Virus record (IMG/VR): IMGVR_UViG_3300006056_000038
Coordinates: 1 to 64,000 of that record
DNA from: a virus
Length of the DNA stretch: 64,000 bases
Direction: 5' to 3' (one strand)
In this document: positions 676 through 61,242 of the stretch, in pieces
Layout of the letters: every line of letters begins with the position of its first letter
Position numbering within the stretch: position 1 is the first letter of the stretch
Program-made: the position numbers and the translations under genes
Notes under the pieces: model-generated
Told to the model about the DNA's origin: nothing
Databases searched by the model: none
What the model saw: only the letters and a program-made list of their open reading frames with translations

Positions 676-699
676 GCTGTTGTTTTGGGATAAATAGAT

Positions 700-2052
700 T
701 CAGTTGATGATTCTATAGACTATGTTGTACTGACCCCAAGTGCCTCTTTCGGCGTATCCGTTTATGGTAAAACTCGCCCCATCGACAATATCGCTATTCG
801 CGAAAGAAACCTCGTCCAAAAGCGCCTCGCCGACCTCGGGATGATCATTTGAAGCAACAATCCCGATCAATATGATCGAATTGGTCCTTACACTGGAATT
901 ACTGACGGTGGTGGATGTAAAGTCGCCCTCTCCTCCTGAAGAAAAACCAAAATCCACGATAGTTGTTCCAGTGGTCGGGTTCAACAGGAAAATTGAGGAT
1001 ATATCCGCCGAACCGGAAAATATTGTTGATGCGGAAAGGGATGAAGCCGATAGCGACGCGAACGAAGGCGAAACAACAACATCCACCGTTTGCGCCCCGA
1101 AGGTTCCGCCCGTCACAAGATTGCTCCCCGGAATTATCCTCGTTCTCGATTGCTGAATGATCGTCGATAAGTCCGTTCCGCCCGAAAGAATCAGACCTCC
1201 GTTGATCGTTTGCGATCCGAGGCTCGTTGCGTTGACGGTTCCAACGAGCAACGAAGAAGCGGTCACGTCGGTAAACGTGGGATCCGCCACTACGTCCACC
1301 GTGGGACGGGTTATCGTTCCTCCGGTCGTTGTGTTGGTTCCGTTCTGGACGTAGGTCGGGGCGATGAACTCCTCCGCCTGATCGCCCACGTAGAGGTGTT
1401 TCTTTACGGTGAGATTATCGACGGAGATTTTTGTGGCCTCGATTTCGTTGAACGCCCCAACGTTGGCCCCGATATATTCCGCTTCGATCTGCGGGGAGGA
1501 GAGCAGCGTTAAGGCCTTCAATGTGTTCACGTTCACATCAACGAACGTCGGGTTATCGACGACGTTCACCGATGGGCGTGACGGCGTTCCTCCTGTGAAC
1601 GTGTTGCTTCCGTTTTGGACGTAGGTCGGCGTTCCTCCGGTCATATATCTGGACAAATCGGTCCCCGCGCTATAGAACGTGGTGGCGGAAACAGCCACAG
1701 CGAACATCGAAGCGAAGGAAGGCGACAACACGATGTTGATCGTTGGTCGTGATGGCGTCCCACCTGTGAACGTGTTGTTTCCATCTTGTACAAACGTAGA
1801 TGTTCCGCCCATGAGCAAGCTCAAATCGGTGGACCCGCTGTAGAACGTGGTGGCAGACACCGCGCTACCTCCCGAATAGAGCGCCCGTAGGAAATCGTAC
1901 TGCAAGGGACCAACGTGGTAGTACACCTGCTCCTCGCCGCCCAATAACGATGTCAATCCACTATGTGAGGGCGATGGTCGAAGATAGATGGACATGCTTG
2001 CTTTTGGCGCAGAACGGAGAAAATCAGCGCCTCCGCAATAAATAGAATACAA
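700..2052 (-). CDS. Tail-fibre-like repeat protein; the probable true start is the ATG at 1995 (the track start at 2052 is TTG)
   Basis: Three tandem ~50-aa repeats (YVQ[ND]G[NST]NTFTGGTPSRP[TS][IV]N[IV]V ... FYS[GA][GS]TDLS). Gly/Thr/Ser-rich beta-type composition typical of fibre or receptor-binding proteins. Position is next to the tail tube gene. Confidence 0.55.
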   Translation of the reverse strand: MYSIYCGGADFLRSAPKASMSIYLRPSPSHSGLTSLLGGEEQVYYHVGPLQYDFLRALYSGGSAVSATTFYSGSTDLSLLMGGTSTFVQDGNNTFTGGTPSRPTINIVLSPSFASMFAVAVSATTFYSAGTDLSRYMTGGTPTYVQNGSNTFTGGTPSRPSVNVVDNPTFVDVNVNTLKALTLLSSPQIEAEYIGANVGAFNEIEATKISVDNLTVKKHLYVGDQAEEFIAPTYVQNGTNTTTGGTITRPTVDVVADPTFTDVTASSLLVGTVNATSLGSQTINGGLILSGGTDLSTIIQQSRTRIIPGSNLVTGGTFGAQTVDVVVSPSFASLSASSLSASTIFSGSADISSIFLLNPTTGTTIVDFGFSSGGEGDFTSTTVSNSSVRTNSIILIGIVASNDHPEVGEALLDEVSFANSDIVDGASFTINGYAERGTWGQYNIVYRIIN

Positions 2053-2087
2053 ACGGGCCCGGAAAAATATTCCACCGCTTATTTATG
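2036..2087. promoter_or_regulatory. Divergent regulatory region carrying two copies of the CTATTTATGG-family motif, one per orientation
   Basis: CAATAAATAG (2036-2045; reads CTATTTATTG on the minus strand) and CTTATTTATG (2078-2087), between the divergent genes 700-1995(-) and 2111(+). Confidence 0.5.
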
Positions 2088-2110
2088 AGAAATCTAACAA
2101 ACAGAAACAC

Positions 2111-2599
2111 ATGGCAGATATGTTCCGTCCCGTGCCGATCGATCAGGAGCCGCTCCTCCAGAACAGGTTCGCACTTGAATTCCCGACCGAACTGGGCATC
2201 GACCAGTTCATTGTTCAGACGGCCAAGAAGCCGAGCTTGAACATCAACGCCGTTGAGATCCCTTACATGAACGGGATGAACTTCGTAGCTGGCCGCGCTG
2301 TGTGGCAGCCGATGGAGATCAGCTTCATCGACGTGATCGGCCCCTCCACCACCCAGAAGGTCATGGAATGGGTGAACCTTCACTACGAAAGCTCCACGGG
2401 CCGTGCAGGCTATGCCGTTGGTTACAAGAAGAACCTTGTACTGAAGGCTCTTGACGGCCCGGGCGTAGAGGTGCAGAAATGGACTTTGATCGGTTGCCAG
2501 ATCGTCACCGCCGATTGGGGCGACTTCGATTACGGCGCGGACGAGGTGGTTCGTATCAACCTCACCATCCAGCCCGATCGTTGCATCCTGAGCAACTAA
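2111..2599 (+). CDS. gp19: Tail tube protein, T4 gp19-like
   Basis: 162 aa. The segment IPYMNGMNFVAGRAVWQP...D matches the T4 gp19 pattern IPVGFMNRKINVAGDRTFDDW...D, with a similar C-terminal D/W/Y-rich end. T4 gp19 is 163 aa. Confidence 0.6.
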   Translation: MADMFRPVPIDQEPLLQNRFALEFPTELGIDQFIVQTAKKPSLNINAVEIPYMNGMNFVAGRAVWQPMEISFIDVIGPSTTQKVMEWVNLHYESSTGRAGYAVGYKKNLVLKALDGPGVEVQKWTLIGCQIVTADWGDFDYGADEVVRINLTIQPDRCILSN

Positions 2600-3399: not shown

Positions 3400-4409
3400 T
3401 GCAACATCTGCGGCGCCTTATCCGTACAACCATCTTGGAAATGGCAATGACGGGACCCAAACGTATCGCTCTCCTGCGTCAGATGCAGGACCCTGATGTC
3501 CAGCGCTTCATCGCGATGGTGGACGCGGCGCAGAGTGAAAAGGAACTGCGCACCATCGACCAATACGCAATCATCCCGGGATTGGGACAACGACCCGAAA
3601 TGATCGGAGATGCCCAACTATATTGGGCCGTTAGCGAACTCCATCACGCAAAGGAAGCAGAGCTTCGCCGGGAGGTGAAGGCCCGCGAGCGCGCCGCCAT
3701 CGACGCCCGCAAGGCCGAACGCCAACAGAAGAAGGACACCGTGGTCGCCAAGATCCGTCACGGCCTGAGCAATCCAGTCCTGAAGGCAGCGCTCGATAAG
3801 ATCGGCGACGGATTCCATGCCCAACTCAAGGCGCGGATTGTCGAGCGGGAGACCTCCATGGTCGAACGCTACTTCACCGATGGCGTGTTCAATCTCGTTG
3901 ACCCGGATCCATACGGTATGAAGGGGAGAGACCCTGTGATCAGAGCGGAGAGGGATGAATACCGTAAGGTCCGCCAAATGCTCATGTGGTTCTTCAAAAG
4001 AGACATGAACAACACCTATAGCGAACGGGAAAACAGCAATGTCCTTGTGGACAATTGGAAAGAAGTCATCGACGCGCACGGCCAGCGTTATGCCGACGGC
4101 ATCGTGAACTCGTGGAAGGAGAAGATGTCCCTGAAGCTCGGAGAGGTCATCGACCGCAAGGGCGGAGCGGAAATTGAACTGCAAGGCCAGCTTTGGAGCG
4201 AATACATGACCTTCGCATTCGCGGACGGCTCTTCCTTCGACATGAAGACCCAACAGGTATACGCCAGAAGCAAGTTGGGAACGGACTTCGTTCGCTTCCC
4301 CACCACGTTCCACAACGTACGCTTCGTCGATGGCACCGCCATGGCAAAGCCTTCGTCGAACAAGATGCAGGACGAATTCGGGATATCCGACGCTACAGCA
4401 TCGAAATAG
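3396..4409 (+). CDS. Hypothetical protein with CTS-like N-terminus; internal/packaged protein candidate
   Basis: N-terminus MQHLRRLIRTTILE matches the M-D-I-R-R-x-I-R-x-x-I-x-E N-terminal family described in the findings. 337 aa, charged and helical. Confidence 0.5.
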   Translation: MMQHLRRLIRTTILEMAMTGPKRIALLRQMQDPDVQRFIAMVDAAQSEKELRTIDQYAIIPGLGQRPEMIGDAQLYWAVSELHHAKEAELRREVKARERAAIDARKAERQQKKDTVVAKIRHGLSNPVLKAALDKIGDGFHAQLKARIVERETSMVERYFTDGVFNLVDPDPYGMKGRDPVIRAERDEYRKVRQMLMWFFKRDMNNTYSERENSNVLVDNWKEVIDAHGQRYADGIVNSWKEKMSLKLGEVIDRKGGAEIELQGQLWSEYMTFAFADGSSFDMKTQQVYARSKLGTDFVRFPTTFHNVRFVDGTAMAKPSSNKMQDEFGISDATASK

Positions 4410-4423
4410 TGCTCTATTTATGG
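4405..4423 (+). promoter_or_regulatory. Palindromic CTATTTATGG motif (GAAATAG tg CTCTATTTATGG), 14 nt upstream of the ATG at 4438
   Basis: Inverted repeat AAATAG/CTATTT overlapping the TAG stop of the upstream gene. Confidence 0.5.
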
Positions 4424-4437
4424 GGACAATTTCTCCC

Positions 4438-5028
4438 ATGGATAACACCCTGAACGACCAGCGCCGCGAACAACTCATTGAACGCGCCCTCCAGTTGCAC
4501 GAACAACAAAAGGACCTCGAACAGGAGTTTTCCCCAGAGGAATTGCAGGAACTTTGGAGCGGCCTGAAGCACCTCGCCTCACGCGGAGCTGAAGCTTTAG
4601 GGGGAGCCATGCAAAGGGTCGGAAACAATGTGGCGAACAAGATAGATTCGGCCGCCAATGCCGTCGGGAACGCCGTATACGACAACACCATCGGGGTCGC
4701 CAAGAATGCCGCATCGGCCGTCAAAGGAGCCGTAGGAAATGCAGCAACTGCCACCAAACAAGCTGCTCAAGGGGTTCAGAACAAAGTGGTGGACACCTAC
4801 CGTCAAGGCGAGATCAATGGCATCGTACAGCGGATCCATGACCTGAACAACAAGTACAAGGAACTCACCGGGAAGAGCTTCGTACGCCAATTCAGCGCCG
4901 CCTCCGCTCCCACTCCGAACGCCCAGAAACGCGCAGCCTCGCAGTCTGCGACCCAAGCCAAGATGGCAATGGCGGAATGTCAGCGCATGCAGAAGCTCGC
5001 AGGCTTGATTACCGAGTCGGAGGATTGA
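4438..5028 (+). CDS. Hypothetical protein
   Basis: 196-aa ORF starting MDNTLNDQRREQLIE; Ala/Gly/Asn-rich middle. Track ORF 4330-5028 trimmed to the ATG after the motif. Confidence 0.45.
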   Translation: MDNTLNDQRREQLIERALQLHEQQKDLEQEFSPEELQELWSGLKHLASRGAEALGGAMQRVGNNVANKIDSAANAVGNAVYDNTIGVAKNAASAVKGAVGNAATATKQAAQGVQNKVVDTYRQGEINGIVQRIHDLNNKYKELTGKSFVRQFSAASAPTPNAQKRAASQSATQAKMAMAECQRMQKLAGLITESED

Positions 5029-5764: not shown

Positions 5765-7606
5765 TCATTTTGTTGCAGGCGTCCACGAGAAGCGCATATT
5801 ACCGCAATCCCAGATGCGGTCCATGCCGAGGAGTTGGGCGAGTTCCCATTCCTTCATGGAAAGCGCGTCCTCTATACTCATCAACTGGGCTTCCGCGACT
5901 TTTTTGGCAACGACATCTTTTCGATATTGGAATCGATGATGACGATTCCAATAGTTGCCTTTTTTGAAATACCAATAGTTGGGCTTACTGAAGCCTTCGA
6001 ATTTGAACCCGTTCTTGACATATACGGTTCTATCTGGATCGTTGCCGCTCCATCCTATGTCAGCGAACGTGGCTATTTCCTTTGGATTATGTTCAGTGAT
6101 GAAATACGACAGCAATTTCGAAAAAGCTCCCACCACATTATATCCGATTAGGCTGGAAAAACGTATCAACTCAAAAACTCCCTCCTTATCCTCCTTGGTA
6201 CCCAGCGCTCTTCGCCTTCCCCCGAAAGACATTGCCGATACGATCTCATTCTCGTACATGAGACCAAATGTAATTCTTGATGGGGCATCACCTTGTATGT
6301 GGTTTTTTTCGAAGAAGTCGCGCTTATCGACGAATTCCAATGGTACCACCCTGCATTTTCTGGCGCCCAATTTGACTTCACATATACCGATGGACGACAA
6401 TATTCTTGAGATTACCACATCCGGACGGTCCACTATTTCATCTTCGAATACATGGATCAATCTTAATCCACTCTCTTGCGCCATCTTGGTCTTCATCAAG
6501 TGGTATTCCTTTGTTTTACCTCCTCCACGTTCTGCATGATAGTAATTTCCGTTGAATTCTATCGCTATCCCATGGTCTTCCAACACAAAATCCAATTCAT
6601 ATTTCTTGATGTGTCTTCTGGAATTCTCTACGAATTTTATCTCTCTCTCAATCAATGCTTTTCTCAATGCGTTATGCGTCATTGGACTTGTTGGAGAAGG
6701 GAAGCATTTTCTACATATGGGAATGGTTGGACTACAGAATTTTCTCTTGAATTCATTGCTACAGACTAAGCATCGAAATTCATACTCTTTATATCCAATG
6801 CTATCTCTGAATCCAGTGAATTCACCCATGAGCTCTATGTCGTTCGCATTCAGTTGCTGTATCAATGCATACTGCTTTGTACTTTCTATTTTTGAGAACC
6901 ATGCTTCCGTCACCTTTGCTTTATATTCAGATGTTTGAGAATAATACTCCACACCATATCTCTCCTTCGATGTTTTTTTTGCCCTATCCAATATTTCTTC
7001 GCTCTTAAGCGGAACATCAACACCATAATTATTCATCAGGGTTTCCTTGGCTTTCTCCTGAAAATCCAACCGCTTCATTGCATGCGTCTCGCCATAAAGA
7101 TCCATCATTGTCTCTGCGGCCTTCTCTCTATTATTGTAGTTCTCATCCCCATGCACCTCTGATTTTGTTTCACGATTCTGGGGCATGTTGTTGTAATTCT
7201 CGTCCCCGTACTTCTCCAATTTCGTTGCCTTGATCTTTGCTGTTCTTTCATCTCCATGTTCATTCAGCGTATTACGCATGGCTTCCGCAGCCTTCTCTTG
7301 GATCTCCTTCACCATGAACGCGCTCTCCACTCCGTACTTCTCCAAGACCGCCTCCTTGGTTCGTTCCATGCGCGCGGCGATGTTCTCCGGACGTCCCTGC
7401 CAGTCCAAGCGGCATGGTTCGGAACAGAACCTGCGCTCGCGTTTGATGCGTTCTTCGAATTGGGTCGAACACACAGGGCACGTCCGGGTCTCGTAGGTCT
7501 TCCCTCGTTTTATTACGTTCGAGCATTCGCGTGAGCAGGTCTCGCTCTTCGGGAATTTCTTCGTTCCGCCGCATACGGCGCATCCATTTGTTATTTCATT
7601 TGACAT
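5765..7606 (-). CDS. Multidomain protein: N-terminal zinc ribbons, six tandem ~24-aa YG[VD]E..EK.KET repeats, and a Vsr/DUF559-like (PD-(D/E)xK) endonuclease-type domain; homing-endonuclease-like
   Basis: CAVCGG...CSRECSN and CPVCST...CSEPC zinc ribbons. Repeats KYGVESAFMVKEIQEKAAE / KYGDENYNNMPQNRETKSE / VHGDENYNNREKAAET / LYGETHAMKRLDFQEKAKET / NYGVDVPLKSEEILDRAKKT / RYGVEYYSQTSEYKAKVTE. YELDFVLEDHGIAIEFNGNYYH resembles the Vsr-like endonuclease core. Confidence 0.5.
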   Translation of the reverse strand: MSNEITNGCAVCGGTKKFPKSETCSRECSNVIKRGKTYETRTCPVCSTQFEERIKRERRFCSEPCRLDWQGRPENIAARMERTKEAVLEKYGVESAFMVKEIQEKAAEAMRNTLNEHGDERTAKIKATKLEKYGDENYNNMPQNRETKSEVHGDENYNNREKAAETMMDLYGETHAMKRLDFQEKAKETLMNNYGVDVPLKSEEILDRAKKTSKERYGVEYYSQTSEYKAKVTEAWFSKIESTKQYALIQQLNANDIELMGEFTGFRDSIGYKEYEFRCLVCSNEFKRKFCSPTIPICRKCFPSPTSPMTHNALRKALIEREIKFVENSRRHIKKYELDFVLEDHGIAIEFNGNYYHAERGGGKTKEYHLMKTKMAQESGLRLIHVFEDEIVDRPDVVISRILSSIGICEVKLGARKCRVVPLEFVDKRDFFEKNHIQGDAPSRITFGLMYENEIVSAMSFGGRRRALGTKEDKEGVFELIRFSSLIGYNVVGAFSKLLSYFITEHNPKEIATFADIGWSGNDPDRTVYVKNGFKFEGFSKPNYWYFKKGNYWNRHHRFQYRKDVVAKKVAEAQLMSIEDALSMKEWELAQLLGMDRIWDCGNMRFSWTPATK

Positions 7607-7665
7607 TGTACCTACAAGTATTGCTGTTTATAAGTACAAATATATGAAATATTACTTAATAATAG

Positions 7666-7700
7666 AAAAGGCGTCTGACATCAGACGCCTTTTCTATTTA
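7666..7700. terminator. Bidirectional intrinsic terminator downstream of the sheath gene
   Basis: Perfect 13-bp stem AAAAGGCGTCTGA/TCAGACGCCTTTT with a 2-nt loop, flanked by a T-run on both strands (TTTTCTATTT on plus; TTTTCTATTATT on minus). Confidence 0.7.
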
Positions 7701-10185: not shown

Positions 10186-10195
10186 CATAAATAGG
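10186..10195 (-). promoter_or_regulatory. CTATTTATG motif upstream of the sheath gene
   Basis: CATAAATAGG on plus (reads CCTATTTATG on the minus strand), between the terminator at 10221-10260 and the sheath ATG at 10121. Confidence 0.45.
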
Positions 10196-10592: not shown

Positions 10593-10638
10593 AGGGTTGG
10601 TTTTATGGTTGTCCCCATAAATAGCAGGGCAATGATGG

Positions 10639-11350: not shown

Positions 11351-11848
11351 CAGGTAAATAGCAAGGCGCATGGAACGATGCGGCATCATTCAAAACCACT
11401 TCCCCTCTTTCCTTCCGAATGAAAGGATTTCCATATCAATCCGGCATTCAAGGCGGATCATCAATTATTTTCTTCCTAGAACTTGACTTTGTCAAAAGAG
11501 AACGTATCTTTGCCTCGCTTTTGCCGCCCTATAAAGCTGTTTCTTTTTGAGGGGATTTGATCAGATGGGCGGACTTTGTACTGCAAGCGCAAGTTGCGAG
11601 CAGGGCAAAATTCAAACCAACCAACTCACGTAAAAAATCGTGGGGAGGAAAGGAGGGGGTTTGAATTTTGGAACTCTTCGAGTTCTTTTCCCTGACTTCG
11701 CAAGATCTCCCTTCTGGAATTCTTCTACTACAGAATATCATCCAGAAAAGAGAGAGAAATTTAATACTTGATGTAGAAGAATTCTACATCATAACAAGGG
11801 AAAAAATCGATGTTAGAGTTGCTCTCCATGCAGAAGGAAAATTCCCTC

Positions 11849-13870: not shown

Positions 13871-13889
13871 CTATTTGAACCTAAATAGG
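13871..13889. promoter_or_regulatory. Divergent motif pair CTATTTGAAC / CTAAATAGG between 13859(-) and 13932(+)
   Basis: Inverted repeat CTATTT-gaacc-TAAATAG, a variant of the CTATTTATGG family. Confidence 0.4.
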
Positions 13890-15456: not shown

Positions 15457-15479
15457 CATAAATAGCTCTCTATTTATGG
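15457..15479. promoter_or_regulatory. Palindromic motif CATAAATAG-ctct-CTATTTATGG in the divergent region
   Basis: Serves the start of 15452(-) (about 4 nt) and 15496(+) (16 nt). Confidence 0.5.
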
Positions 15480-18034: not shown

Positions 18035-18055
18035 TAAATAGAGCACTATTTATGT
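18035..18055. promoter_or_regulatory. Palindromic motif GTAAATAG-agca-CTATTTATG in the divergent region
   Basis: 3 nt upstream of the ATG of 18030(-) and 14 nt upstream of 18069(+). Confidence 0.5.
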
Positions 18056-19713: not shown

Positions 19714-20013
19714 TCATACGCGCTGGCTCAGCGCGCCACGGATTATCGAGCGGAGGAACCGCTCGTTCACCACAGGGGTTCCCATCCGCTTTTGAACGGC
19801 GGCATCGTATTGTTGCTTGATGTTGTCGGAGGACATCTCGTATTGTTCGTCAGTCAATTTATGTCCACTCTCCGCCGTCTTCAACGCATACTGAAGTCGT
19901 ATGATAAAGGAACCTGCCCGTTCTGTACGACTCCAAAATGATCGATCGTACGAGGCGGCGTAATTCCATTGGCCATAAATATGGCCATATTTAGCTTTGA
20001 TGGACATTCGACG
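19714..20013 (-). CDS. Doubtful small ORF (would contain the 19973-19994 motif inside its coding sequence)
   Basis: Track ORF 19714-20073; low-complexity, W/Y-rich. Confidence 0.2.
   Translation of the reverse strand, partial: RRMSIKAKYGHIYGQWNYAASYDRSFWSRTERAGSFIIRLQYALKTAESGHKLTDEQYEMSSDNIKQQYDAAVQKRMGTPVVNERFLRSIIRGALSQRV
19973..19994. promoter_or_regulatory. Palindromic motif CCATAAATATGG-CCATATTTAG
   Basis: Perfect inverted repeat ending 5 nt before the ATG of 20000(+). Confidence 0.5.
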
Positions 20014-20632: not shown

Positions 20633-20683
20633 TCGAGATCAAACCATTCCGGTTTGGATGGCATTATCGCCATATTTATGTAC

Positions 20684-27593: not shown

Positions 27594-28967
27594 TCAATCT
27601 TGGTCAGGAGCATCGAGACCCGCGAGTACACGGTTCCGTTTTGCTTCAGCACTTTCGTAAATAGGCTGCTTTTTTGGTTGTGCCACTGGAATGGCGGAGG
27701 ATTTGATCACACCCTTGTCTTTTGGCATGCTCTTTTCGCTGATGATCTCTTTGTAGATGCGCTCAGCTTCCTCTGCACTCGTTGCGGCTTCGAAGCGTTC
27801 GGAGATCCGAACCTTCTCCTTTTCCGTCAAGCCCCCATTGGATACCACGCGGTATGCAAGCGCCAACTTCTTGTTGAACGTCTGCACCTCGTTGTAGTGC
27901 TCCCGGAGTTCGATGAAGGCGCTTTTGAATTCGCCTATCTGACCCTTCAAACTTTTGTTTTCCTTCTTTAGCTCGGCGATGATCGCCTCATGGTGAGCTT
28001 CTTCTTTCTTGGTATTCTCGTTCACTGCACCCGTGCGGGTACGGTTGTCAACGGCCACCTTGGGCGCGGTGTGCGGTCCTGCGGTGCGGTTGACGGTATG
28101 CGATTGACCCATGGCCTTTACTTCGTCCACGAGCGCTTCGTCCTCTTCCATTTCGAGTTCGATGAGATCATCGTCCTCGTCCAGCTCGATCATTTCCTCC
28201 ATGGCAGGGGCCATTTCAGGGGCGGGCGCTGGAGCTTCTGCGGCAGGAGCAACAGCTCCGGCCTCGTCGTCCACGATGTCCACTTCGTCACCATCGCTGG
28301 TGGGAGCGGCGCCGGTCTGTTGGGCGATCATCTTCTTGATGACGTCCGCCAACTGGGCGGTGAGATCTTCTTGGGGAGCAGCTTCTGGAGCCACCTCAGG
28401 TGCAACCTCTGGGGCTGGAGCTGGGGCGGCTTCTGGAGCGGCGGGTGCGGGTTGTTCCATGTTGGGTTGTGTTTGTTCTTCTTCCGCAGTGATCTGGATC
28501 TCATCCTCATCGGAGGAGAGCTCGATCTGCTCGTCATCGCCCACCGCATCAACAGCGACGGGAGTAGGTGCGACTGACGTAGGCGCCACCGGAGCGGCAG
28601 GAGTGGCATCGACCGGGGTCTGGGTAACGGCGTCGACGGGGGTCTCGGGGACCTCACCGGCTTCGGGTTCCTTGAATTCGTTCTTGATGGAACCATCGTC
28701 GTCGATCGTCACCTTCTGGGTGTCGGTCTCCACCTTGATGGTCTCCGAAACGATCTCAACGGGGACCTTCGTCTCTTCGACGGGCTCCTCGTTGTTCACT
28801 TCATCGATGGCATCTTCGACCAATCGTTGGATCCTCTCTTGGTTCTCCTTGAGAAGATTGTCCTGAGCCAGCTTGACGATGGAGTCGATGTCCACCTTTG
28901 CTTGTTGAAGAATATTCTTTTCCTTGCTCATATCGCTGATCTTCGATTTTGAATAAATAATGCACAA
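27594..28967 (-). CDS. Scaffolding/prohead core protein (gp22-like by position), acidic coiled-coil with a Pro/Ala/Glu low-complexity region
   Basis: Sits between the protease and MCP genes as in T4 (21-22-23). Very acidic, with the AAPEAAPAPAPEVAPEVAPEAAP repeat region and coiled-coil ends. Antisense ORFs here (e.g. 28111-28866+) are repeat artefacts. Confidence 0.55.
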   Translation of the reverse strand: MCIIYSKSKISDMSKEKNILQQAKVDIDSIVKLAQDNLLKENQERIQRLVEDAIDEVNNEEPVEETKVPVEIVSETIKVETDTQKVTIDDDGSIKNEFKEPEAGEVPETPVDAVTQTPVDATPAAPVAPTSVAPTPVAVDAVGDDEQIELSSDEDEIQITAEEEQTQPNMEQPAPAAPEAAPAPAPEVAPEVAPEAAPQEDLTAQLADVIKKMIAQQTGAAPTSDGDEVDIVDDEAGAVAPAAEAPAPAPEMAPAMEEMIELDEDDDLIELEMEEDEALVDEVKAMGQSHTVNRTAGPHTAPKVAVDNRTRTGAVNENTKKEEAHHEAIIAELKKENKSLKGQIGEFKSAFIELREHYNEVQTFNKKLALAYRVVSNGGLTEKEKVRISERFEAATSAEEAERIYKEIISEKSMPKDKGVIKSSAIPVAQPKKQPIYESAEAKRNRVLAGLDAPDQD

Positions 28968-33495: not shown

Positions 33496-33537
33496 TTACA
33501 CATAAATAGCCTCCTTTCCCGAAGGAATTGATTATCT

Positions 33538-36151: not shown

Positions 36152-36198
36152 GGTGCTTGTGTTTTCCATAAATAGCGCGGATCTCCCAAAATGGGAAA

Positions 36199-37007: not shown

Positions 37008-37047
37008 CTAAATATGGGTGACTTCTCCGCAAAACCATCTATTTATG
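37008..37047. promoter_or_regulatory. Divergent motif pair CTAAATATGGG (for phoH) and CTATTTATGAG (for 37060+)
   Basis: Two motif copies, one per orientation, in a roughly 70-bp divergent intergenic region. Confidence 0.45.
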
Positions 37048-40811: not shown

Positions 40812-40945
40812 GATGGGTTACTTTCTTGGGTGCGCTCTTTACGCACATCCATAAATAACAGGAAAAACCAGAAATGCCTTTTTGATCCTATCGGGAAGAA
40901 AAAATATCTTCCGTCGTTGGATGTGATTTCTCTTGGTTTAGCTTT

Positions 40946-41308
40946 GTGCGAGCATATTTATTGTTCTACGCACCCTTCATGGACAACATCTTCACCGGCA
41001 CGTTGGACAACTTCAAGGAGCTGGTAGGTACGCAGGACAAGGTCATTATAGTGGATTTCTATGCCGAATGGTGCGGACCGTGCCGTGGACTGAGCGTCGC
41101 GATAGATGCGGTGGCCGAGAAATACGGGGAGATCATGGTGATCAAGGTGGACGTCGATAAGAACGGGGAGCTCGGCCGGTCCGCTCCTTACAACGTAAAG
41201 GGTATTCCCCAGATGTTCTTCATCAAGAACGGGGAGGTCATGGAAAAGACCGTGGGCCTGCAATCCATCGAGCGGATCAGCTCATTGATCGATCCGTTGC
41301 TGAACTGA
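40946..41308 (+). CDS. trx: Thioredoxin (probable start at MDNIFTG, about 40979)
   Basis: DFYAEWCGPCRGLS with the WCGPC active site, and the overall thioredoxin-fold order. Confidence 0.75.
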   Translation: MRAYLLFYAPFMDNIFTGTLDNFKELVGTQDKVIIVDFYAEWCGPCRGLSVAIDAVAEKYGEIMVIKVDVDKNGELGRSAPYNVKGIPQMFFIKNGEVMEKTVGLQSIERISSLIDPLLN

Positions 41309-53418: not shown

Positions 53419-53776
53419 GTATTGCTTCGATCTGGATGGTACAATATGCGAAACCAAATCACTTGGACAAAGCTATGCAGATGTCAACCCTCTTCCCGGC
53501 GCAGTAGAAACACTGAAAAAACTAAGAACCCAAGGGCACTACATAATAATTCTCACCGCGAGGAACATGTCAACCTATGACAATAATTTGGGAAAAGTCA
53601 TTGCAAATCAGGCGCCAATTGTCCTAGATTGGCTGAGAAAATACGAAATCCCATATGATGAGTTGTTGTTCGGAAAGCCGAATGCGGACTTCTTCATTGA
53701 TGATAAAGGGGTTCAATTCACCAACTGGAATGAGCTAAACCAAAAACTGCTTATAGATGAGAAAATTTCTAATTGA
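53396..53776 (+). CDS. HAD-superfamily phosphatase
   Basis: Motif I FDLDGTI, motif II IILTAR, motif III K....FFIDD; 126 aa. Confidence 0.6.
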   Translation: MISMKQFRYCFDLDGTICETKSLGQSYADVNPLPGAVETLKKLRTQGHYIIILTARNMSTYDNNLGKVIANQAPIVLDWLRKYEIPYDELLFGKPNADFFIDDKGVQFTNWNELNQKLLIDEKISN

Positions 53777-54563: not shown

Positions 54564-54575
54564 AGCTCATTTAAC

Positions 54576-56050: not shown

Positions 56051-56849
56051 GTACCCGTTCTACCACGAGGGGCTTTACTTGGAGGAATACTTCCACCGCC
56101 ATCGGAAGCGCCATGACGGGCGGCAATACATCGATGCGTTCTGGACCAACATCTACTCCAACCGCTCCTTTGCTGGCATCCATAGCGTGGATGTGCAATC
56201 GGAGCTCGACAAGCTGGACCCGAACGGGCGATATTTCACCGTATGCCAGAACGACGACGGGGTCTTGGAACGCCTGCCAAAGGACACGCTGAAGTTCTGC
56301 GCCGGAGGCAACAACGTCGATGATGCCACCATCCCCATTCCTCTATTGGCGTCGCCCATTCCCGGCATTGACCTTTCCCGGGAGAAGGACCTGCTGGCGA
56401 GCTTCGTCGGAAGCAACACCCATCCTTTGCGTGCTGAGATGCACAAGACACTTCGTGGTCGTCCGGGATTTTCGGTACAGATGAAGAATTGGTCCCTTGA
56501 ACTTCCGGACGCTTCCGCAAGGCAGTTCATGGACCTGTCATCTCGCTCGAAGTTCATGCTCGCCCCGAGAGGATATGGAAGGACGAGTTTTCGTCTCTAC
56601 GAGGCCTTCCAGTTCGATTGCATTCCCGTGTATATCAGCGATTCGATGTTCCTTCCTTATTCTGATGTCATAAATTGGAATGATTTTACTATATTGATAA
56701 CTCCCGATAGAATCGGGGACATAGAGAATATCCTTAATGCTTCATTGACGAATGGTGAATATGACAGGATATTGAACAACGTCAAACAAAACAAACATCT
56801 GTTTACCATGGAGTACATGGTCGAATATATCGAAAGCAAAACAACATGA
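56013..56849 (+). CDS. Exostosin-like glycosyltransferase (GT47-type C-terminal domain)
   Basis: SRSKFMLAPRGYGRTSFRLYEAFQFDCIPVYISDSMFLPYSDVINWNDFTILI matches the exostosin/GT47 signature (S.F.L.P.G...S.R..EA...GCIPVI.SD...LPF.D..DW..FS). Confidence 0.5.
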   Translation: MTDSLRPSSATHKYPFYHEGLYLEEYFHRHRKRHDGRQYIDAFWTNIYSNRSFAGIHSVDVQSELDKLDPNGRYFTVCQNDDGVLERLPKDTLKFCAGGNNVDDATIPIPLLASPIPGIDLSREKDLLASFVGSNTHPLRAEMHKTLRGRPGFSVQMKNWSLELPDASARQFMDLSSRSKFMLAPRGYGRTSFRLYEAFQFDCIPVYISDSMFLPYSDVINWNDFTILITPDRIGDIENILNASLTNGEYDRILNNVKQNKHLFTMEYMVEYIESKTT

Positions 56850-57616
56850 GAACATTAGGCATTTCCATCGACGGCGTCATTCGGGACTTCAACTCCCAGT
56901 TCCATAAGACCTACGTCAAGACGTTCATCCATAACGATTCGCTCGTCGCCGCCAATATCCCTTCACATGCCGAAGCGCGCATGAACGGCTTGGGAGATGG
57001 AGACTTCGTGGCACAAGAGACCACCGAAAGTGACGAACTCATGGTGCAGCAGGCTGTTGAGAAAAAGGAAAAGGACCTGATCTCCCTACCCGTCAACAGC
57101 GACGACTTGCTCAACCACTATCGCTTCGAAGAGGGGAAGATGGATTTCATTACCACGGCAGATGGGAAGGAACCCGATAAGATCATCACGCCGAAGGATG
57201 CCTTGAACAAATTCATCTTCGAGGATTATCCGTTCCAGATCTTCGGCATGGCCTCCGAATACGATGGTGCCAATGAAATGGTGAACCGCATCCAAGGCTA
57301 CGGCCGTCAGAAGGAATTCTTCAACGTCGTTCTTCTGTCATCCGCGCAGAAACAGGCCATTCCCGCTACTTACAACTTTTTGGCGCGTTGCCATTCACGC
57401 GCCAAGTCGGTCGTATTCGTGGAGCGTGAAGAAGACAAGTGGGACCACTGCGACGTGCTCATTGATGCGAATCCACGCGCCATCCAAGCGGTGCCAACGG
57501 ACAAGTTCGTCATCCGCATTTTGCGCGACTGGAACCAATATGACGACATCGAGTACACTTATTCCAATCTGAAGGAGGTGCTCAGTTCCGGCGTTCTGGA
57601 CAAGCTGTTCAAGTGA
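56846..57616 (+). CDS. Hypothetical protein
   Basis: 256 aa. The N-terminus ISIDGVIRDF is reminiscent of, but does not satisfy, the HAD DxDGx motif. Confidence 0.4.
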   Translation: MRTLGISIDGVIRDFNSQFHKTYVKTFIHNDSLVAANIPSHAEARMNGLGDGDFVAQETTESDELMVQQAVEKKEKDLISLPVNSDDLLNHYRFEEGKMDFITTADGKEPDKIITPKDALNKFIFEDYPFQIFGMASEYDGANEMVNRIQGYGRQKEFFNVVLLSSAQKQAIPATYNFLARCHSRAKSVVFVEREEDKWDHCDVLIDANPRAIQAVPTDKFVIRILRDWNQYDDIEYTYSNLKEVLSSGVLDKLFK

Positions 57617-57642
57617 GTCGATAACCTCATATCCATTTCTGG

Positions 57643-57668
57643 AATGGGCGACAATATTGTCGCCCATT
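57643..57668 (+). terminator. Intrinsic terminator
   Basis: AATGGGCGACAA-tat-TTGTCGCCCATT followed by TTCTTTTTGC. Confidence 0.65.
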
Positions 57669-57714
57669 TTCTTTTTGCACAAAACTCCCTTTGTTTTCGG
57701 TAGCCTCCCATTCT

Positions 57715-58950
57715 ATGTTTATTCAAAGCGATAATAGCATGGCAGAGAACATGGAAACTACCGAAGCGGTGATGGACGCCCCGACCGGGAATCTATCCCA
57801 CAACGCGTTCATCGATCAGGTGATCGACAAGATCAAGAACAACGATTTCACCGTCCACTTCTATTCCCCGGCGATGAACACGCCAAGTGGTGGCATCGGT
57901 GTATTGCTGCGTCTGGCCCGCGCCCTGAAGGACAATGGACATAGGGTAAAGGTGTGGTATGAGCCACGGTTCGACCAAAAGGCGAGCATGGATGCCTCAA
58001 CAAAGGCCAAGAAGCGCATCGACCTGTTCGACCAGTTCCATCCGAACTGGGTGGACTTCAACATCTCGGACATCGACTTCGTCCCGCTGGGTGATTCGAA
58101 GATCAATTTCGTGAATGGAGAGTCGCAGGAAGCGACGCCGTTGAAAGTGGACACACAGGACATGTTCTTCATCCCTGAGGGTTTCCCCAATATCATGGAA
58201 AAGACGGCGGGTGTGACGTGCAAACGCATTGTGCTGGCCCAAAGCTGGCTCTACGTCCTGTCGGGCATGCAGAACGGTCAGACGTGGCAGAATTTCGGCA
58301 TCAAGGATGTTGTGAGCGTTTCGGACGCCATCACCGAATACTTGGATACGGTAATGCCGGGTCTTTCCATCAAGCAGTTGAAACAAGGGATCAACCGGGA
58401 GATCTTCCATCCCCCCACCAAGCGGTCGGAAAAGTATCCATGTATCGGCTTTGTCAATGGACGTGATTCCATCTCGCAATTGAAGCTGATCAACATGATC
58501 AAGATGTTCTCTTTGGCCTGCCCTCATTTCCGTTGGGTGAAGTTCATCGAGCTATCCAACCTGAGCCGCGAGGAGTTCGCAGAGCGCATCCGTTCCTGCG
58601 CATTCGTGCTCTACGCCGATGACGTGGCTGGCTTCGGCACACTACCTCTTGAGGCCATGGCCTGCGGAACGCACGTGATCGGATGGGCCGCCTTCGGTAG
58701 CAAAGAATACGTACAGAAGGACAATGGCTTCTGGTGCAACAACGGCGACGTGTTCCAGATGGCGGAAATGCTCGGCATTGCGCTGGACAAGTGGTTGAGC
58801 GGTGAGATGGACCTTGAAGACACGCAGGAAACCTATGAGGAAGTCCTCAGCAGGTATACCGTGGAGGGAGAAAAAAGTCGCATTACCGAGATCGTAGAAG
58901 AATATAAAACAGAAAGAACACATGAACTTGAAAGAGCTAAAAAACAGTGA
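57715..58950 (+). CDS. Glycosyltransferase, GT-B fold (GT4-like)
   Basis: Start uncertain (57691/57715/57749). C-terminal E-x7-E-type motif LYADDVAGFGTLPLEAMACGTHVIGWAAFGSKEYV. Confidence 0.55.
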   Translation: MFIQSDNSMAENMETTEAVMDAPTGNLSHNAFIDQVIDKIKNNDFTVHFYSPAMNTPSGGIGVLLRLARALKDNGHRVKVWYEPRFDQKASMDASTKAKKRIDLFDQFHPNWVDFNISDIDFVPLGDSKINFVNGESQEATPLKVDTQDMFFIPEGFPNIMEKTAGVTCKRIVLAQSWLYVLSGMQNGQTWQNFGIKDVVSVSDAITEYLDTVMPGLSIKQLKQGINREIFHPPTKRSEKYPCIGFVNGRDSISQLKLINMIKMFSLACPHFRWVKFIELSNLSREEFAERIRSCAFVLYADDVAGFGTLPLEAMACGTHVIGWAAFGSKEYVQKDNGFWCNNGDVFQMAEMLGIALDKWLSGEMDLEDTQETYEEVLSRYTVEGEKSRITEIVEEYKTERTHELERAKKQ

Positions 58951-59899
58951 CGTTCTGGTGGGCATGTTCGTAAAGAACGTGGTCCACGAAAGCATGCTGC
59001 ACGAATCGCTGTACAGCATTGCCATGCAGCACCTTCCCGTCAATTTGATCATTCTTCATTCGGGTCTTTCCGAAACGGAACTGGACAAATTGAAGGCCAT
59101 CGCCAAAGAGCCTACAGTTCGTATGAAAACGAACAAGAAGATCAAGGTGAAGAACGAGGATGGCACGGAGACCGAACGGGACGAGATCGTCACGGAGAGT
59201 GCAGGTGGTTCATTGAACTACGTCATCCAACAAGTGGAAGTGAACAGCTTCCCGGATGTCTTCAACATCGTATTCCAGACGGCCGTCGAGCATGGGTATA
59301 AGATCATGTCGGTGACCGAACCGGAGGACGTATACTCTCTGCGCTGGTTCGAGCTGGTGGATGAATGGCATAAGGAAAATCCCGAGATTTCCATGTTCCT
59401 TCCGCTGATCAAGCACATGAATTTCGGTACGTTCCAAGGATTCATGAACGAATCGTGCTGGGCCGAGGGCATGGCGGAAGAAGTCGGTAAATACGACAAC
59501 AACCTGTTGTTGAAATTCAACTTCGCCGCACATCCGCTGGGAGCCGCCATGGTCGTCCCAAACATGATGAAGGAAACCGGCGCATACGAACATCGTGGTG
59601 ACCTGACGTATCCGATGAAGAGCAGCATCAAACTGTTCAACTACTACGAGTTCTTCCTGCGATCGGCATACAATGACATCAAGATGATGAACATCCCGAG
59701 GATCGGTTACGAAATGCGGGTCATCGATATCGCCTCATACGATGCGCGGTCCAGCAAGATCCCGACCACACTTCTGAGCTTGCCTTCCGACAAGGGTGGC
59801 ATCACCGCAGGGGAGGCGCAGTTCTGGGCGAAGTATGCGACGGACGCCTACTTCATGGAAGAGGATGATAAAACAGTCACCTATGAACATAGCATCTGA
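58922..59899 (+). CDS. Hypothetical protein (possibly GT-A-like); last gene of the glycan cluster
   Basis: 325 aa; the N-terminus VLVGMFVKN...SLYSIAMQ loosely resembles GT2 N-termini. Weak. Confidence 0.35.
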   Translation: MNLKELKNSDVLVGMFVKNVVHESMLHESLYSIAMQHLPVNLIILHSGLSETELDKLKAIAKEPTVRMKTNKKIKVKNEDGTETERDEIVTESAGGSLNYVIQQVEVNSFPDVFNIVFQTAVEHGYKIMSVTEPEDVYSLRWFELVDEWHKENPEISMFLPLIKHMNFGTFQGFMNESCWAEGMAEEVGKYDNNLLLKFNFAAHPLGAAMVVPNMMKETGAYEHRGDLTYPMKSSIKLFNYYEFFLRSAYNDIKMMNIPRIGYEMRVIDIASYDARSSKIPTTLLSLPSDKGGITAGEAQFWAKYATDAYFMEEDDKTVTYEHSI

Positions 59900-60842
59900 T
59901 GTCTCCACCGGGAATACCATCGTGCCCATCGTGGAGGTCAAAAAGAAGCAAAAGATCTACTGGACTGAGGACACGGAAGCCGCTATAAAGGAGTTCTTGT
60001 CCCTTGACTCGAAACACCTTCAAGGGAAGTATGATGCTTACGTAAAGGCTCAGACCGAATCGGGAACCCATGACCCGACGATCGATGACGGCTATGCCGC
60101 AGAGCTACAGTCGAACATTCGAAAGAGCTCAACGGAAAAGGCCAAACTTCGAAAGGAGGAGATATTCCGTAGCAGGATACGTACGCCGCTCAATTTGTTG
60201 ATCGAGAACATCATCTTCAACTTCAAACTGTTCCGGCACGATGTCGGGGTCAAAACGCTGCACAACGACTGCATGTCACATGTGTACGAGAAGTTCTACA
60301 AGTTCGACCCCGAGAGGAACACCAAGTCGTTCTCTTACTTCGGGACCATTGCCAAACATTATCTTCAGAACCAGAAAAAGGACCTTGATAGCCTGAAGTC
60401 CATCAACCTGAACTATGACGACCATGTGGAAGAGGTTGATTCCTTGGACGGAGACGACGATAATGAAACACAGGCTTCCGATGAAATGCTTGATCTGTTC
60501 AATCACATGATCACGGCGTTCGAAAAGAACATGAGCAACAAGGCTTTGAACGATAACGACAAGAAAGTGTTGGATTCCATTCTGGAGCTCTTCAAGGGCC
60601 ACGGTAGCGGAAGCGACGAAAACCAGAAGGACGGAAAAGGCAAGGTGTTGGCGAACAACTGGAGAAAGAACCACGGAAATGACCTGCTCGACGAAAGCAA
60701 GTACAGCAAAGGGAACATCCTTGACTTCATTGCCGATCGATCCAAGTTGACCAAGGACGAAATGAGCAAAAGCCTCACCAAGTTGCGCAATCTGTACAAG
60801 GAAAAAAGGAAAGACTTCTATAACCGCCCACCGAAACATTGA
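59883..60842 (+). CDS. Late-transcription sigma factor, T4 gp55-like, with a long C-terminal extension
   Basis: Start at MNIASDV (overlaps the upstream stop). KFDPERNTKSFSYFGTIAKHYLQNQKKD aligns with T4 gp55 [32 protein letters not shown]. Upstream, EDTEAAIKEFL aligns with NKELLQAIIDW. 319 aa versus 185 aa in T4. Confidence 0.5.
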   Translation: MNIASDVSTGNTIVPIVEVKKKQKIYWTEDTEAAIKEFLSLDSKHLQGKYDAYVKAQTESGTHDPTIDDGYAAELQSNIRKSSTEKAKLRKEEIFRSRIRTPLNLLIENIIFNFKLFRHDVGVKTLHNDCMSHVYEKFYKFDPERNTKSFSYFGTIAKHYLQNQKKDLDSLKSINLNYDDHVEEVDSLDGDDDNETQASDEMLDLFNHMITAFEKNMSNKALNDNDKKVLDSILELFKGHGSGSDENQKDGKGKVLANNWRKNHGNDLLDESKYSKGNILDFIADRSKLTKDEMSKSLTKLRNLYKEKRKDFYNRPPKH

Positions 60843-61213
60843 CTCTCGAAGAAAAGAAAGAGATCTTCAGGCATCTATTGGGCCTGATATTCTTCGATGA
60901 CTGTCAGGACATCGGGGATGAACGCATCATTAGCTTCTACTTCTATCTTCTCGACAGTCTTGAAACGACGTCAGAGGTCCACATCTCCAAGGAGAACGAC
61001 GACTTCTTCGTGGTGGAATCGGTGGTAAGATTGTTGTCGGATTTCCACAATCTCGACGATTCGGTCCTTCTGCACATCGCCAAGGGGCATGACAATTTCA
61101 AGGAGGCCCTCATGGAGCAGACCGGAATGCCACCGGAGTTCGTGGATGAGGCCATCGAGCGTTTGCTGGGGGATTTCCAAGACATCAAGAACGGCTACCT
61201 CTTCATCGAATAA
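60839..61213 (+). CDS. Hypothetical protein
   Basis: 124-aa acidic ORF, translationally coupled to the upstream gene. Confidence 0.4.
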   Translation: MTLEEKKEIFRHLLGLIFFDDCQDIGDERIISFYFYLLDSLETTSEVHISKENDDFFVVESVVRLLSDFHNLDDSVLLHIAKGHDNFKEALMEQTGMPPEFVDEAIERLLGDFQDIKNGYLFIE

Positions 61214-61221
61214 TGGCCGAT

Positions 61222-61242
61222 CTCTATTTATGGGAAATAGAG
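61222..61242 (+). promoter_or_regulatory. Perfect palindromic motif CTCTATTTATGGGAAATAGAG, 5 nt upstream of the ATG at 61247
   Basis: CTCTATTT-ATGGG-AAATAGAG inverted repeat. Confidence 0.5.

Follow-up and report, generated by a model that had tools for sequence, protein, structure and literature searches.

A TATTTA box ahead of virion genes in a T4-like phage is most likely a group-specific form of the T4 late promoter

Introduction

Many genes on both strands of the DNA described here, from an uncultured T4-like phage, are preceded by the same short AT-rich motif, which raises the question of what kind of signal it is and what reads it. In the original prediction, it was regarded as a candidate phage-specific late promoter, served by a gp55-like sigma factor and giving very short leaders or none, and a likeness to a Bacteroidota promoter element and a possible role as the site of a dimeric regulator were also pointed out. 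The motif was followed through the window, which is the whole 64-kb stretch analysed, and through related phages. It is most likely a known kind of signal in variant form, and not a new kind of signal or system.

A hexamer at gene starts

The degenerate 11-mer by which the motif had been described matches only once as written, but it contains the true invariant core, the hexamer TATTTA, which lies within the consensus (C/A)TATTTAT(G) on both strands of the window. The two strands together hold 27 copies of the hexamer, compared with the 7–13 expected from Markov models of order 1–4, and for the 10-mer CTATTTATGG, 5 exact copies stand against an expectation of 0.07. In 22 of the 27 cases, against a background of 21%, an ATG that begins an open reading frame of at least 80 codons follows on the same strand within 50 nt of the hexamer, which ranks first among all 4096 hexamers of the window for this position (p = 2.5e-11). 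The recurrence of the motif at gene starts, far above chance, is thus borne out by the motif scan. All sites originally named are present, but three had been missed: 40955+ (thioredoxin-like gene), 28959- (scaffold), and 27663- (before the capsid gene). The 25 boxes with a gene downstream, and the partial copies beside two of them, are as follows.

691..696, minus strand: TATTTA, 15 nt upstream of the start codon of gene 1-675(-), whose product has 475 aa in the full contig
2039..2044, minus strand: TATTTA, 43 nt before ATG 1995 of a 431-aa gene; divergent with 2080+; start independently called in locus L089
2080..2085, plus strand: TATTTA, 25 nt before the tail tube gene 2111-2599
4404-4409: AAATAG remnant upstream of box 4415+, overlapping the stop codon of the preceding plus-strand gene
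4415..4420, plus strand: TATTTA, 17 nt before gene 4438-5028
10188..10193, minus strand: TATTTA, 66 nt upstream of ATG 10121 of the tail sheath gene, just past a terminator-like hairpin (10263-10229)
10618..10623, minus strand: TATTTA, 25 nt before gene 10284-10592
11355..11360, minus strand: TATTTA, 5 nt before ATG 11349 of a 236-aa gene; leaderless type
13882..13887, minus strand: TATTTA, 22 nt before gene 13584-13859, head of the neck/adaptor unit reaching 11849; AAATAG 5 nt downstream and a variant TATTTG toward the plus-strand gene
15459..15464, minus strand: TATTTA, 6 nt before ATG 15452 of a 172-aa gene (MDVRSLIR... family); leaderless type, paired back to back with 15471+
15471..15476, plus strand: TATTTA, 19 nt before gene 15496-16443
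18035..18040, minus strand: TATTTA, 5 nt before ATG 18029 of a 352-aa gene (MDIRRIIR... family); leaderless type, paired back to back with 18047+
18047..18052, plus strand: TATTTA, 17 nt before gene 18070-19611, a weak match to a virion structural protein
19976..19981, minus strand: TATTTA, 6 nt before ATG 19969 (MELRRLVR...), whose frame is interrupted after 36 codons
19988..19993, plus strand: TATTTA, 6 nt before ATG 20000 (210 aa, MDIRRMIR... family); leaderless type
20673..20678, plus strand: TATTTA, 5 nt before ATG 20684 (306 aa, MDIKKLIK... family); leaderless type
27658..27663, minus strand: TATTTA within the scaffold gene (3' end), 92 nt upstream of ATG 27565 of the major capsid gene; kept in locus L001
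28954..28959, minus strand: TATTTA, 22 nt before ATG 28931 of a scaffold-like gene; kept in locus L001
30834..30839, minus strand: TATTTA, 22 nt before gene 28988-30811 (prohead protease), directly past a G+C-rich hairpin
33503..33508, minus strand: TATTTA, 7 nt before ATG 33495 of a 275-aa gene
36169..36174, minus strand: TATTTA, 17 nt before the small gene 35999-36151
37009..37014, minus strand: TATTTA, 18 nt before phoH (36199-36990); divergent with 37040+
37040..37045, plus strand: TATTTA, 14 nt before gene 37060-37986
40852..40857, minus strand: TATTTA, 40 nt before gene 40455-40811
40955..40960, plus strand: TATTTA, 18 nt before gene 40979-41308 (thioredoxin-like); a host-type TAGCTTTG lies in tandem with it at 40939
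61225..61230, plus strand: TATTTA, 16 nt before gene 61247-61666, head of the baseplate module; inside the hairpin CTCTATTTATGGGAAATAGAG (61222-61242)

The two remaining copies are orphans, one antisense into the sheath gene (7695+) and one antisense within a gene (59493-). From the end of the hexamer to the ATG, the distance is 5–7 nt at seven sites, 14–25 nt at thirteen, and 40–92 nt at five. The boxes head the tail tube, sheath, prohead protease, scaffold, capsid, and baseplate modules on either strand, several of them directly preceded by terminator-like hairpins; phoH, the thioredoxin-like gene, and several genes of no assigned function, which are not obviously structural, also carry one. 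The hexamer is absent from a 13-kb low-GC block of sugar genes, where 3.5–5.6 copies are expected. In 6.8 kb of this genome lying outside the window and serving as a hold-out, where gene starts were taken from independent database calls, three of the four copies lie 15, 16, and 5 nt before gene starts.

The conservation of the core is strict, as none of its single-mismatch variants is enriched in the window. In the logo of 23 sites, the position before the hexamer is C at 16 and A at 5, and the two positions after it are T at 18 and G at 16, while A occupies the sixth and seventh base past the hexamer at 17/23 and 14/23 sites. No -35-like conservation is found upstream, the information content being at most 0.4 bit at each position from -40 to -21, and sigma-70-type promoters show no enrichment in the window.

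The box in related phages

About 80 related contigs carry the box in front of orthologous genes, with diverged sequence on either side of it. It precedes the orthologue of the 275-aa gene (ATG 33495) at 10 of 10 loci, the prohead protease gene at 10 of the 11 closest related loci, and the capsid gene at six AT-rich loci. The nearest cultured relatives infect Flavobacterium and Rhodothermus, and in one of them, Flavobacterium phage immuto_2-6A, TATTTA is again the top hexamer before annotated coding sequences (21/55, p = 2.5e-14), including those for terL, portal, sheath, tube, hub, tape measure, and phoH. In immuto, TATTTA is also found within a different, host-like early cassette, GTTG-N20-TA(TA/TC)TTTAGGTAT, and the hexamer alone is therefore not diagnostic in the AT-rich relatives.

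The 8-mer of AT-rich relatives is TATTTATA, which equals the T4 late box TATAAATA when reverse-complemented, and the likeness noted originally thus holds for these phages. It is not, however, the T4 box placed on the other strand: in gene-strand upstream windows of relatives, TATTTATA outnumbers TATAAATA by 42:5, 167:21, and 11:3, a total of 220 vs 29 (binomial 8e-38), so that the gene-facing orientation is real and the non-template strand carries a different sequence. In the window, TATAAATA occurs once, as the complement of site 30839-.

A candidate reader and a proposed mechanism

A protein that may read the box is encoded within the window.

59883..60842, plus strand: candidate late sigma factor gene, 319 aa, predicted sigma-2-domain protein whose closest PDB fold is T4 gp55

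The identification of this gene as gp55-like is upheld at the level of the predicted fold but not of sequence: its product has no Pfam, PHROG, or PDB sequence match, no sequence similarity to gp55 or sigma region 2 was detected, and an hhalign comparison with a T4-type gp55 was not significant. The AF2 model of the product (pLDDT 75) suggests a sigma-2-like fold, with T4 gp55 as the best match of all PDB chains. The family has at least 188 members, annotated as 'hypothetical', and the order of sigma gene, small ORF, and baseplate genes is the same in phage immuto. A 123-aa ORF adjoining the sigma gene has a conserved hydrophobic C-terminus and non-specific fold matches. No PHROG or Pfam match to gp33 or gp45 turned up among the scanned ORFs of the window, which is part of a genome of more than 100 kb.

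Very probably, (C/A)TATTTAT(G/A) is the -10-like element of the late, virion-gene promoters of this phage, and the TATTTA box is most likely the form that the T4 late promoter takes in this phage group. The original reading of a phage-specific late promoter, a gp55-like sigma factor, and short or missing leaders is favored by the single strand-specific box, the lack of a -35 element, the virion units that it heads, its conservation, and the match of the modeled protein to gp55. As in T4 late promoters, a short AT-rich box placed about a helical turn ahead of the start site would act without a -35 element. A small sigma-2-type factor made by the phage, for which the 319-aa protein is the candidate, would bind the host RNA polymerase core and read the box as single-stranded DNA of the non-template strand. 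The sigma gene sits in a unit headed by a host-type promoter, and the factor would therefore be made before the late genes. Transcription is predicted to start at the conserved A 6–7 nt past the hexamer; where the ATG also lies 5–7 nt past the box, this would leave seven or eight genes to be translated from leaderless mRNAs, the remaining box-headed genes having leaders of about 5–85 nt. Points against this reading are the two orphan copies, the box-bearing genes without an obvious structural role, the lack of a gp33 or gp45 match among the scanned ORFs, the presence of the hexamer in the immuto early cassette, and an excess of AAATAG partners at three non-divergent sites.

A broader proposal, which we hold with even confidence for and against, is that a large, mostly uncultured T4-like clade, with some genomes of 370–540 kb and probably infecting Bacteroidota, uses a 'mirror-image' late promoter, TATTTATA facing the gene, with an enlarged gp55-type sigma factor, unrecognisable by sequence, as its reader, and with a substantial share of the late mRNAs leaderless in a phylum without Shine–Dalgarno pairing.

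Alternative explanations

The box could instead be a variant -7 element for the host primary sigma factor (Bacteroidota sigma-ABfr, TAHHTTTG), in which case these would be ordinary host-type promoters and not a phage-specific class. A Bacteroidota host is probable, as judged from an SD-like 4-mer in only 1 of 55 genes and from the hosts of the nearest cultured relatives, TATTTATG agrees with TAnnTTTG at five of six specified positions, and TATTTA is present in the host-like early cassette of immuto. This explanation is nevertheless unlikely. At each of the 25 sites, an A takes the place of the nearly invariant T-7 of F. johnsoniae promoters (PMC6847099), AT-rich relatives, with boxes that read TATTTATA or TATTTATT, no longer have the final G, the TA two bases upstream that the immuto early cassette needs is found at none of the sites, and there is no -33 conservation. 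Moreover, genuine TAnnTTTG elements are a separate set, heading non-virion units without TATTTA and lying at most 35 nt from ORF starts in 10 of 17 cases (p = 6e-5), and the likeness to the -7 element raised originally is thus discounted.

An operator for a dimeric phage regulator, either repressor or activator, with the motif as its half-site and the palindromes as the functional unit, is a considerably weaker candidate still. It draws on the arrangement TAAATA-N6-TATTTA, which lies inside perfect palindromes of 11–13 bp in three intergenic regions, and on three further, non-divergent sites with an AAATAG partner 5–11 nt away (about 0.43 expected, p about 0.01). Of the six divergent inverted pairs proposed, 15457-15479, 18035-18055, 19973-19994, and arguably 13871-13889 stand, but 4405-4423 and 61222-61242 are flanked by plus-strand genes on both sides and have only AAATAG as the partner arm. 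No inverted partner lies within 30 nt at 14 of the 25 sites, and the position of the partner is inconsistent, being upstream at 4415 and downstream at 13887 and 61225. The box is strictly gene-facing in the window and in relatives (the 220:29 ratio above), as a symmetric operator would not be. Each arm of the tight pairs lies 5–19 nt before its own gene, and the left-hand genes of these pairs are paralogues, so that the geometry is explained by a duplicated divergent promoter module. The tight palindromes would then be two late promoters back to back, and the reading as a dimeric regulator site is set aside.

Least probable, by a small step, is action in RNA, where an AU-rich processing or stability site (e.g., for RNase E-type cleavage) would make the 5' ends of monocistronic late mRNAs by cutting longer precursors. 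The motif is indeed AU-rich and single-stranded in most contexts, and some boxes lie between co-directional genes (4415, 28959, 27663, 61225). However, the boxes of the back-to-back divergent regions lie only 6 nt apart, and a precursor would have to start within the opposite gene; the hairpins directly before several boxes resemble terminators, and the strict identity over 6 nt without a tolerated mismatch, together with the absence of the hexamer from long operons, fits a DNA recognition element better.

Implications

With the box taken as a late promoter, the motif would provide a simple, testable rule by which late transcription units and true start codons could be located in widespread, almost uncultured T4-like phages, and a likely function for the family of 'hypothetical' proteins to which the candidate sigma factor belongs. 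If true, the broader proposal of a 'mirror-image' promoter would amount to a natural specificity switch at -10/-9 of the gp55 system. The promoter contacts of T4 gp55 have been solved, and setting them beside this box offers a natural experiment in which a minimal sigma factor would change its -10 specificity from AA to TT at two positions while the deep-pocket adenines are kept. From the recurrent spacing of 5–7 nt, leaderless late mRNAs are predicted for a host lineage in which translation begins without Shine–Dalgarno pairing.

Relation to known promoters and mRNAs

The T4 late promoter has the same architecture as the TATTTA box (PMC2988020): a single, tightly conserved 8-bp AT-rich box at -10, without a -35 element, on both strands ahead of virion genes, along with a small, highly diverged sigma-2-type protein encoded by the phage. 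T4 gp55 places the non-template A-12, A-9, and A-8 into pockets (PMC7892883), and alignment of the 8-mers shows six of eight positions to be identical, including the deep-pocket adenines -12 and -8 (PMC2988020, PMC7892883). The two boxes differ at -10/-9, which are TT here and AA in T4, giving the consensus TATTTAT(G/A) and not TATAAATA. A T4-type late promoter fires about 6 nt past its box in a gp55-dependent manner, and the feature seen here at that distance is the conserved A 6–7 nt past the hexamer. In contrast to the 185-aa T4 gp55, the sigma candidate has 319 aa and no detectable sequence similarity, and neither the co-activator gp33 nor the gp45 sliding clamp of T4 was identified among the scanned ORFs of the window. 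For KVP40, 44RR, and S-PM2, and for Aeh1 with a/gC at -13/-12, forms of the T4 late box particular to each lineage have been reported in silico (PMC2988020). These variants keep the AAATA core, whereas the core is changed to TTTAT here, and no description of a late promoter with a TTTAT core was found in the literature searched.

The primary promoter of Bacteroidota (-33 TTTG / -7 TAHHTTTG, sigma-ABfr) shares with the box an 8-nt AT-rich element beginning with TA and a similar predicted distance to the start site (PMC6847099), and differs from it in the invariant A at the T-7 position and in the loss of the G-5 equivalent in relatives. In F. johnsoniae, 87% of the leaders exceed 10 nt (PMC6847099), and transcripts of the likely host phylum are mostly leadered.

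Unlike in T4, many ATGs here lie 5–7 nt past the box, implying leaderless mRNAs in a host that is probably a member of the Bacteroidota. Leaderless mRNAs are known from lambda cI transcribed from PRM and from many genes of Actinobacteria and Deinococcus. The likeness lies in a -10-like box that ends 5–7 nt before the ATG, from which the transcript would begin at or beside the start codon; the difference is that here the arrangement, as predicted from sequence, recurs within a phage late-gene class.

The Phage Genome and Its Gene Starts

The window covers part of the genome of an uncultured myovirus that is distantly T4-like and has a G+C content of ~51%, and its gene products include a tail sheath, a tail tube, a gp23-type capsid protein, a prohead protease, PhoH, and a baseplate hub. 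The nearest records (Microcystis phage Mel-JY01, huge metagenomic phages, Rhodothermus phage RM378, and Flavobacterium phage immuto) all share <45% protein identity, and megablast with 25 kb of the window found no close DNA relatives among cultured phages. The same genome is carried by a 102-kb ENA contig and is present in the samples ERZ27257534, SRR13208891, SRR14751626, and SRR20000428; tube-gene contigs extend upstream of the window by only ~1 kb. The upstream regions of 55 window gene starts are rich in A and poor in G, and 30 of them have C at -1; a Shine-Dalgarno-like 4-mer at -20 to -5 is found at one, compared with 13% of random windows. Translation initiation across the window genes is predicted to be Shine-Dalgarno-independent, in the Bacteroidota style.

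The TATTTA Box

The invariant core of the recurrent motif is the hexamer TATTTA (the box), present in 27 copies over both strands, compared with 7–13 expected under Markov models. This core is used in place of the degenerate 11-mer consensus of the original prediction, which has a single match in the window; the 10-mer CTATTTATGG occurs five times (0.07 expected). All 4096 hexamers, none chosen beforehand, were scored for a same-strand ATG ≤50 nt downstream that begins an ORF of 80 codons or more. TATTTA ranks first, with 22 of 27 copies ahead of long ORFs against a background of 21% (p = 2.5e-11), which confirms the proposed enrichment upstream of starts. None of the 18 single-mismatch variants is enriched, and they were dropped as candidate weak promoters. 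The logo of 23 sites reads (C/A)TATTTA-T-G-nnn-A-A and has no conservation at the position of a -35 element, while a scan for sigma-70-type promoters gave 18 (13.9 expected), which is no enrichment.

The closest relative also keeps two further sites (named by coordinate and strand): 28959-, upstream of the scaffold gene, and 27663-, 92 nt upstream of the capsid gene. With these, 25 of the 27 copies are accounted for. The two orphans may be chance occurrences or antisense promoters; one, at 7695-7700(+), is preceded by a strong bidirectional-terminator-like hairpin (7665-7693) and faces the sheath gene in antisense, and the other, at 59488-59493(-), lies within gene 58922-59899 in antisense. 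No copy lies in the low-GC sugar-gene block at 44–57 kb (3.5–5.6 expected). Outside the window, another 6.8 kb of this genome, with gene starts taken from database calls independent of our own, has four copies, three of which are followed by a gene start at distances of 15, 16, and 5 nt; the starts used at 4438, 10592, 11349, and 1995 also match database gene calls.

Conservation and Direction

Conservation in related phages, proposed as a check on the motif, is borne out among 80 related loci collected with the capsid protein as query. In L001, a relative with 91% capsid identity, boxes before the 275-aa gene, the protease gene, and the scaffold gene are retained within unalignable flanks. 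In AT-rich relatives (27–36% G+C), the box lies 15–25 nt upstream of the orthologue of the 275-aa gene at 10 of 10 loci; it precedes the protease gene at 10 of the 11 closest loci and the capsid gene at six AT-rich loci. TATTTA also ranks first among hexamers ahead of annotated CDSs in the structural region of Flavobacterium phage immuto_2-6A (21/55, p = 2.5e-14), and the form cTATTTATAAATAAA precedes terL, portal, sheath, tube, hub, tape measure, and phoH. The relatives have the 8-mer TATTTATA more often than its reverse complement TATAAATA in gene-strand upstream windows (42:5, 167:21, and 11:3; p about 1e-37), and the element is therefore directional, facing the gene.

Paired Boxes and Palindromes

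Of six inverted pairs originally placed in divergent regions, those at 15457-15479, 18035-18055, and 19973-19994 stand: each carries TAAATA-N6-TATTTA within a palindrome of 11–13 bp, with each arm 5–19 nt from its own divergent gene. These three tight palindromes are putative promoters placed back to back, and the left-hand genes of the three regions have a common duplicated N-terminal module. The pairs at 4405-4423 and 61222-61242 do not hold, the genes being co-directional and the partner reading merely AAATAG. Three other divergent box pairs are spaced 20–92 nt apart. Partial partners occur at 4405-4423, 61222-61242, and 13871-13889 (three, with about 0.43 expected; p about 0.01), and this small excess may be what is left of duplicated promoter modules; the 18035 region and 4405-4421 have 17 nt in common. 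A hairpin function for the palindromes was rejected: the stem at 61222-61242 has modest stability (-8.3 kcal/mol, z -2.4), those at 13871 and 4405 do not outperform shuffled sequence, and, as the predicted start site lies inside the right arm, a late transcript could not form the hairpin.

Host-Type Promoter-Like Elements and Alternative Readings of the Box

TAnnTTTG, the Bacteroidota-type -7 element and a second promoter-like class in the window, lies within 35 nt upstream of long-ORF starts in 10 of its 17 copies (p = 6e-5), and heads genes 33562, 41358 (a 20-kb operon with sugar genes and the sigma candidate), 7606, 23008, 25766, and 32075.

TAnnTTTG elements
33533-33540, + strand, TAnnTTTG
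41333-41340, + strand, TAnnTTTG
40939-40946, + strand, TAnnTTTG
11505-11512, + strand, TAnnTTTG
7637-7644, - strand, TAnnTTTG
23014-23021, - strand, TAnnTTTG
25771-25778, - strand, TAnnTTTG
32079-32086, - strand, TAnnTTTG

Four copies read TATCTTTG, and the orthologous regions of L001 and a second relative, L010, carry TATATTTG. The class suggests promoters for host RNA polymerase (early promoters) and a Bacteroidota host. Phage immuto_2-6A (record 60.9–76.3 kb) has at least 16 near-identical host-like early cassettes, aGTTGc-N20-TA(TA/TC)TTTAGGTATcaataattaaaac, also written GTTG-N20-TA(TA/TC)TTTAGGTAT or GTTG-N20-TAnnTTTAGGTAT, each upstream of a small hypothetical ORF, a pattern similar to that of the early promoter modules repeated in T4-type genomes. 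Because these cassettes include the hexamer, the late class in AT-rich relatives has to be defined as TATTTAT(A/T) without a preceding TA; TA directly precedes the box at no window site.

The box itself had been likened to the Bacteroidota -7 element, but a host-sigma reading fails, as the invariant A of the box falls at the nearly invariant T-7 of TAHHTTTG (PMC6847099), and true TAnnTTTG elements form a distinct class, at units without TATTTA. A dimeric regulator site, the other function suggested by the palindromic arrangement, is not the general one because 14 of 25 sites have no inverted partner at all. An RNA-processing site is unlikely, since back-to-back boxes are separated by only 6 nt.

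The Sigma Candidate and Its Neighbor

A gp55-like sigma factor had been assigned to the ORF at 59883-60842(+), which encodes 319 residues. On the sequence side the assignment finds nothing: Pfam, PHROG, and PDB (phmmer and profile search) gave no match, hhalign against the T4-type gp55 of phage REP4 was not significant, and the 188 metagenomic homologues are all unnamed. Fold comparison alone is informative; an AF2 model from 42 homologues (pLDDT 75) retrieves mostly sigma factors in Foldseek, with weak E-values, and T4 gp55 is the closest PDB fold. The immuto homologue, gp118, has the same neighbors, a small ORF and then baseplate genes. In the window, a 123-aa acidic ORF, 60842-61213(+), overlaps the stop codon of the sigma gene. 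All 7 homologues keep its C-terminus, DFQDIKxGYLF, which is tentatively a candidate clamp-binding or co-activator tail; a fold search with this protein gave non-specific results, including weak sigma-4 matches, that do not mark it as gp33-like.

Other Genes and Modules

The products begun at ATGs 15452(-), 18029(-), 19969(-), 20000(+), 20684(+), and about 11744(+) in L001 have a common N-terminal peptide. Five of these proteins (18–28% identity) are otherwise unrelated and have only ~13 N-terminal residues in common, MDIRRxIRxx(I/L/V)xE, finishing in (I/L/V)-x-E; all the genes have leaderless-type box-to-ATG spacing. The peptide resembles the capsid-targeting sequence of T4 internal proteins, which the prohead protease cuts off, and by this analogy the proteins may be packaged internal proteins. 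In 19714-19969(-), the reading frame of the family member begun at 19969 is closed by a stop after 36 codons, and a second ORF that overlaps it runs on in a different frame as far as 19714. Possible explanations are a pseudogene with a frameshift, a programmed frameshift, and an error in the assembly.

Related repeats of ~120 nt (families D1–D4), spaced 495 and 837 nt apart, lie within genes 15496-16443 and 18070-19611(+), whose products are putative repeat-domain virion proteins with a common module.

Internal repeats D1–D4
15697-16251, + strand, internal repeats
18085-19536, + strand, internal repeats

The ~20 co-directional genes of 41358-59899(+) encode glycosyltransferases, a nucleotide-sugar epimerase, transaldolase-like and DHBP-synthase-like proteins, and methyltransferases, and G+C falls to 39–46% at 44–57 kb. 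A strain variant (L083, 1-5500) has another gene cassette at the same location; the block is a swappable sugar or DNA-modification module. Large homing-endonuclease-like/HNH-like ORFs adjoin the sheath gene (5765-7606(-)) and lie directly downstream of the capsid gene (23082-25880(-)), where L001 has a different gene; both are preceded by host-type TAnnTTTG and not by the late box.

Comparison with the T4 Late Promoter

The main interpretation of the original prediction, a phage late promoter, holds on the motif, its conservation, and the fold comparison, as a prediction from sequence. Transcription would start at the conserved A, 6–7 nt past the hexamer. At 11360-, 15464-, 18040-, 19981-, 19988+, 20673+, and 33508-, the ATG lies only 5–7 nt past the box, so that the mRNAs would be leaderless; short spacing is also frequent in the relatives, with 57 of 357 boxes in the 5–9 nt bin. 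A literature search of limited reach found no published description of the TATTTAT(A/G) consensus in phages, and the lineage-specific box is, as far as that literature goes, an undescribed putative variant of the T4 late promoter system.

The T4 late promoter consists of one 8-bp box at -10 and lacks a -35 element; it is used on either strand and read by gp55 (PMC2988020), whose pockets take non-template A-12, A-9, and A-8 (PMC7892883). When TATTTAT(A/G) is aligned with the T4 8-mer TATAAATA, six positions are identical; the clade's box retains A-12 and A-8 and departs from the T4 box at -10 and -9. The box would thus serve as the late promoter of this clade, read by its own diverged gp55-type factor.
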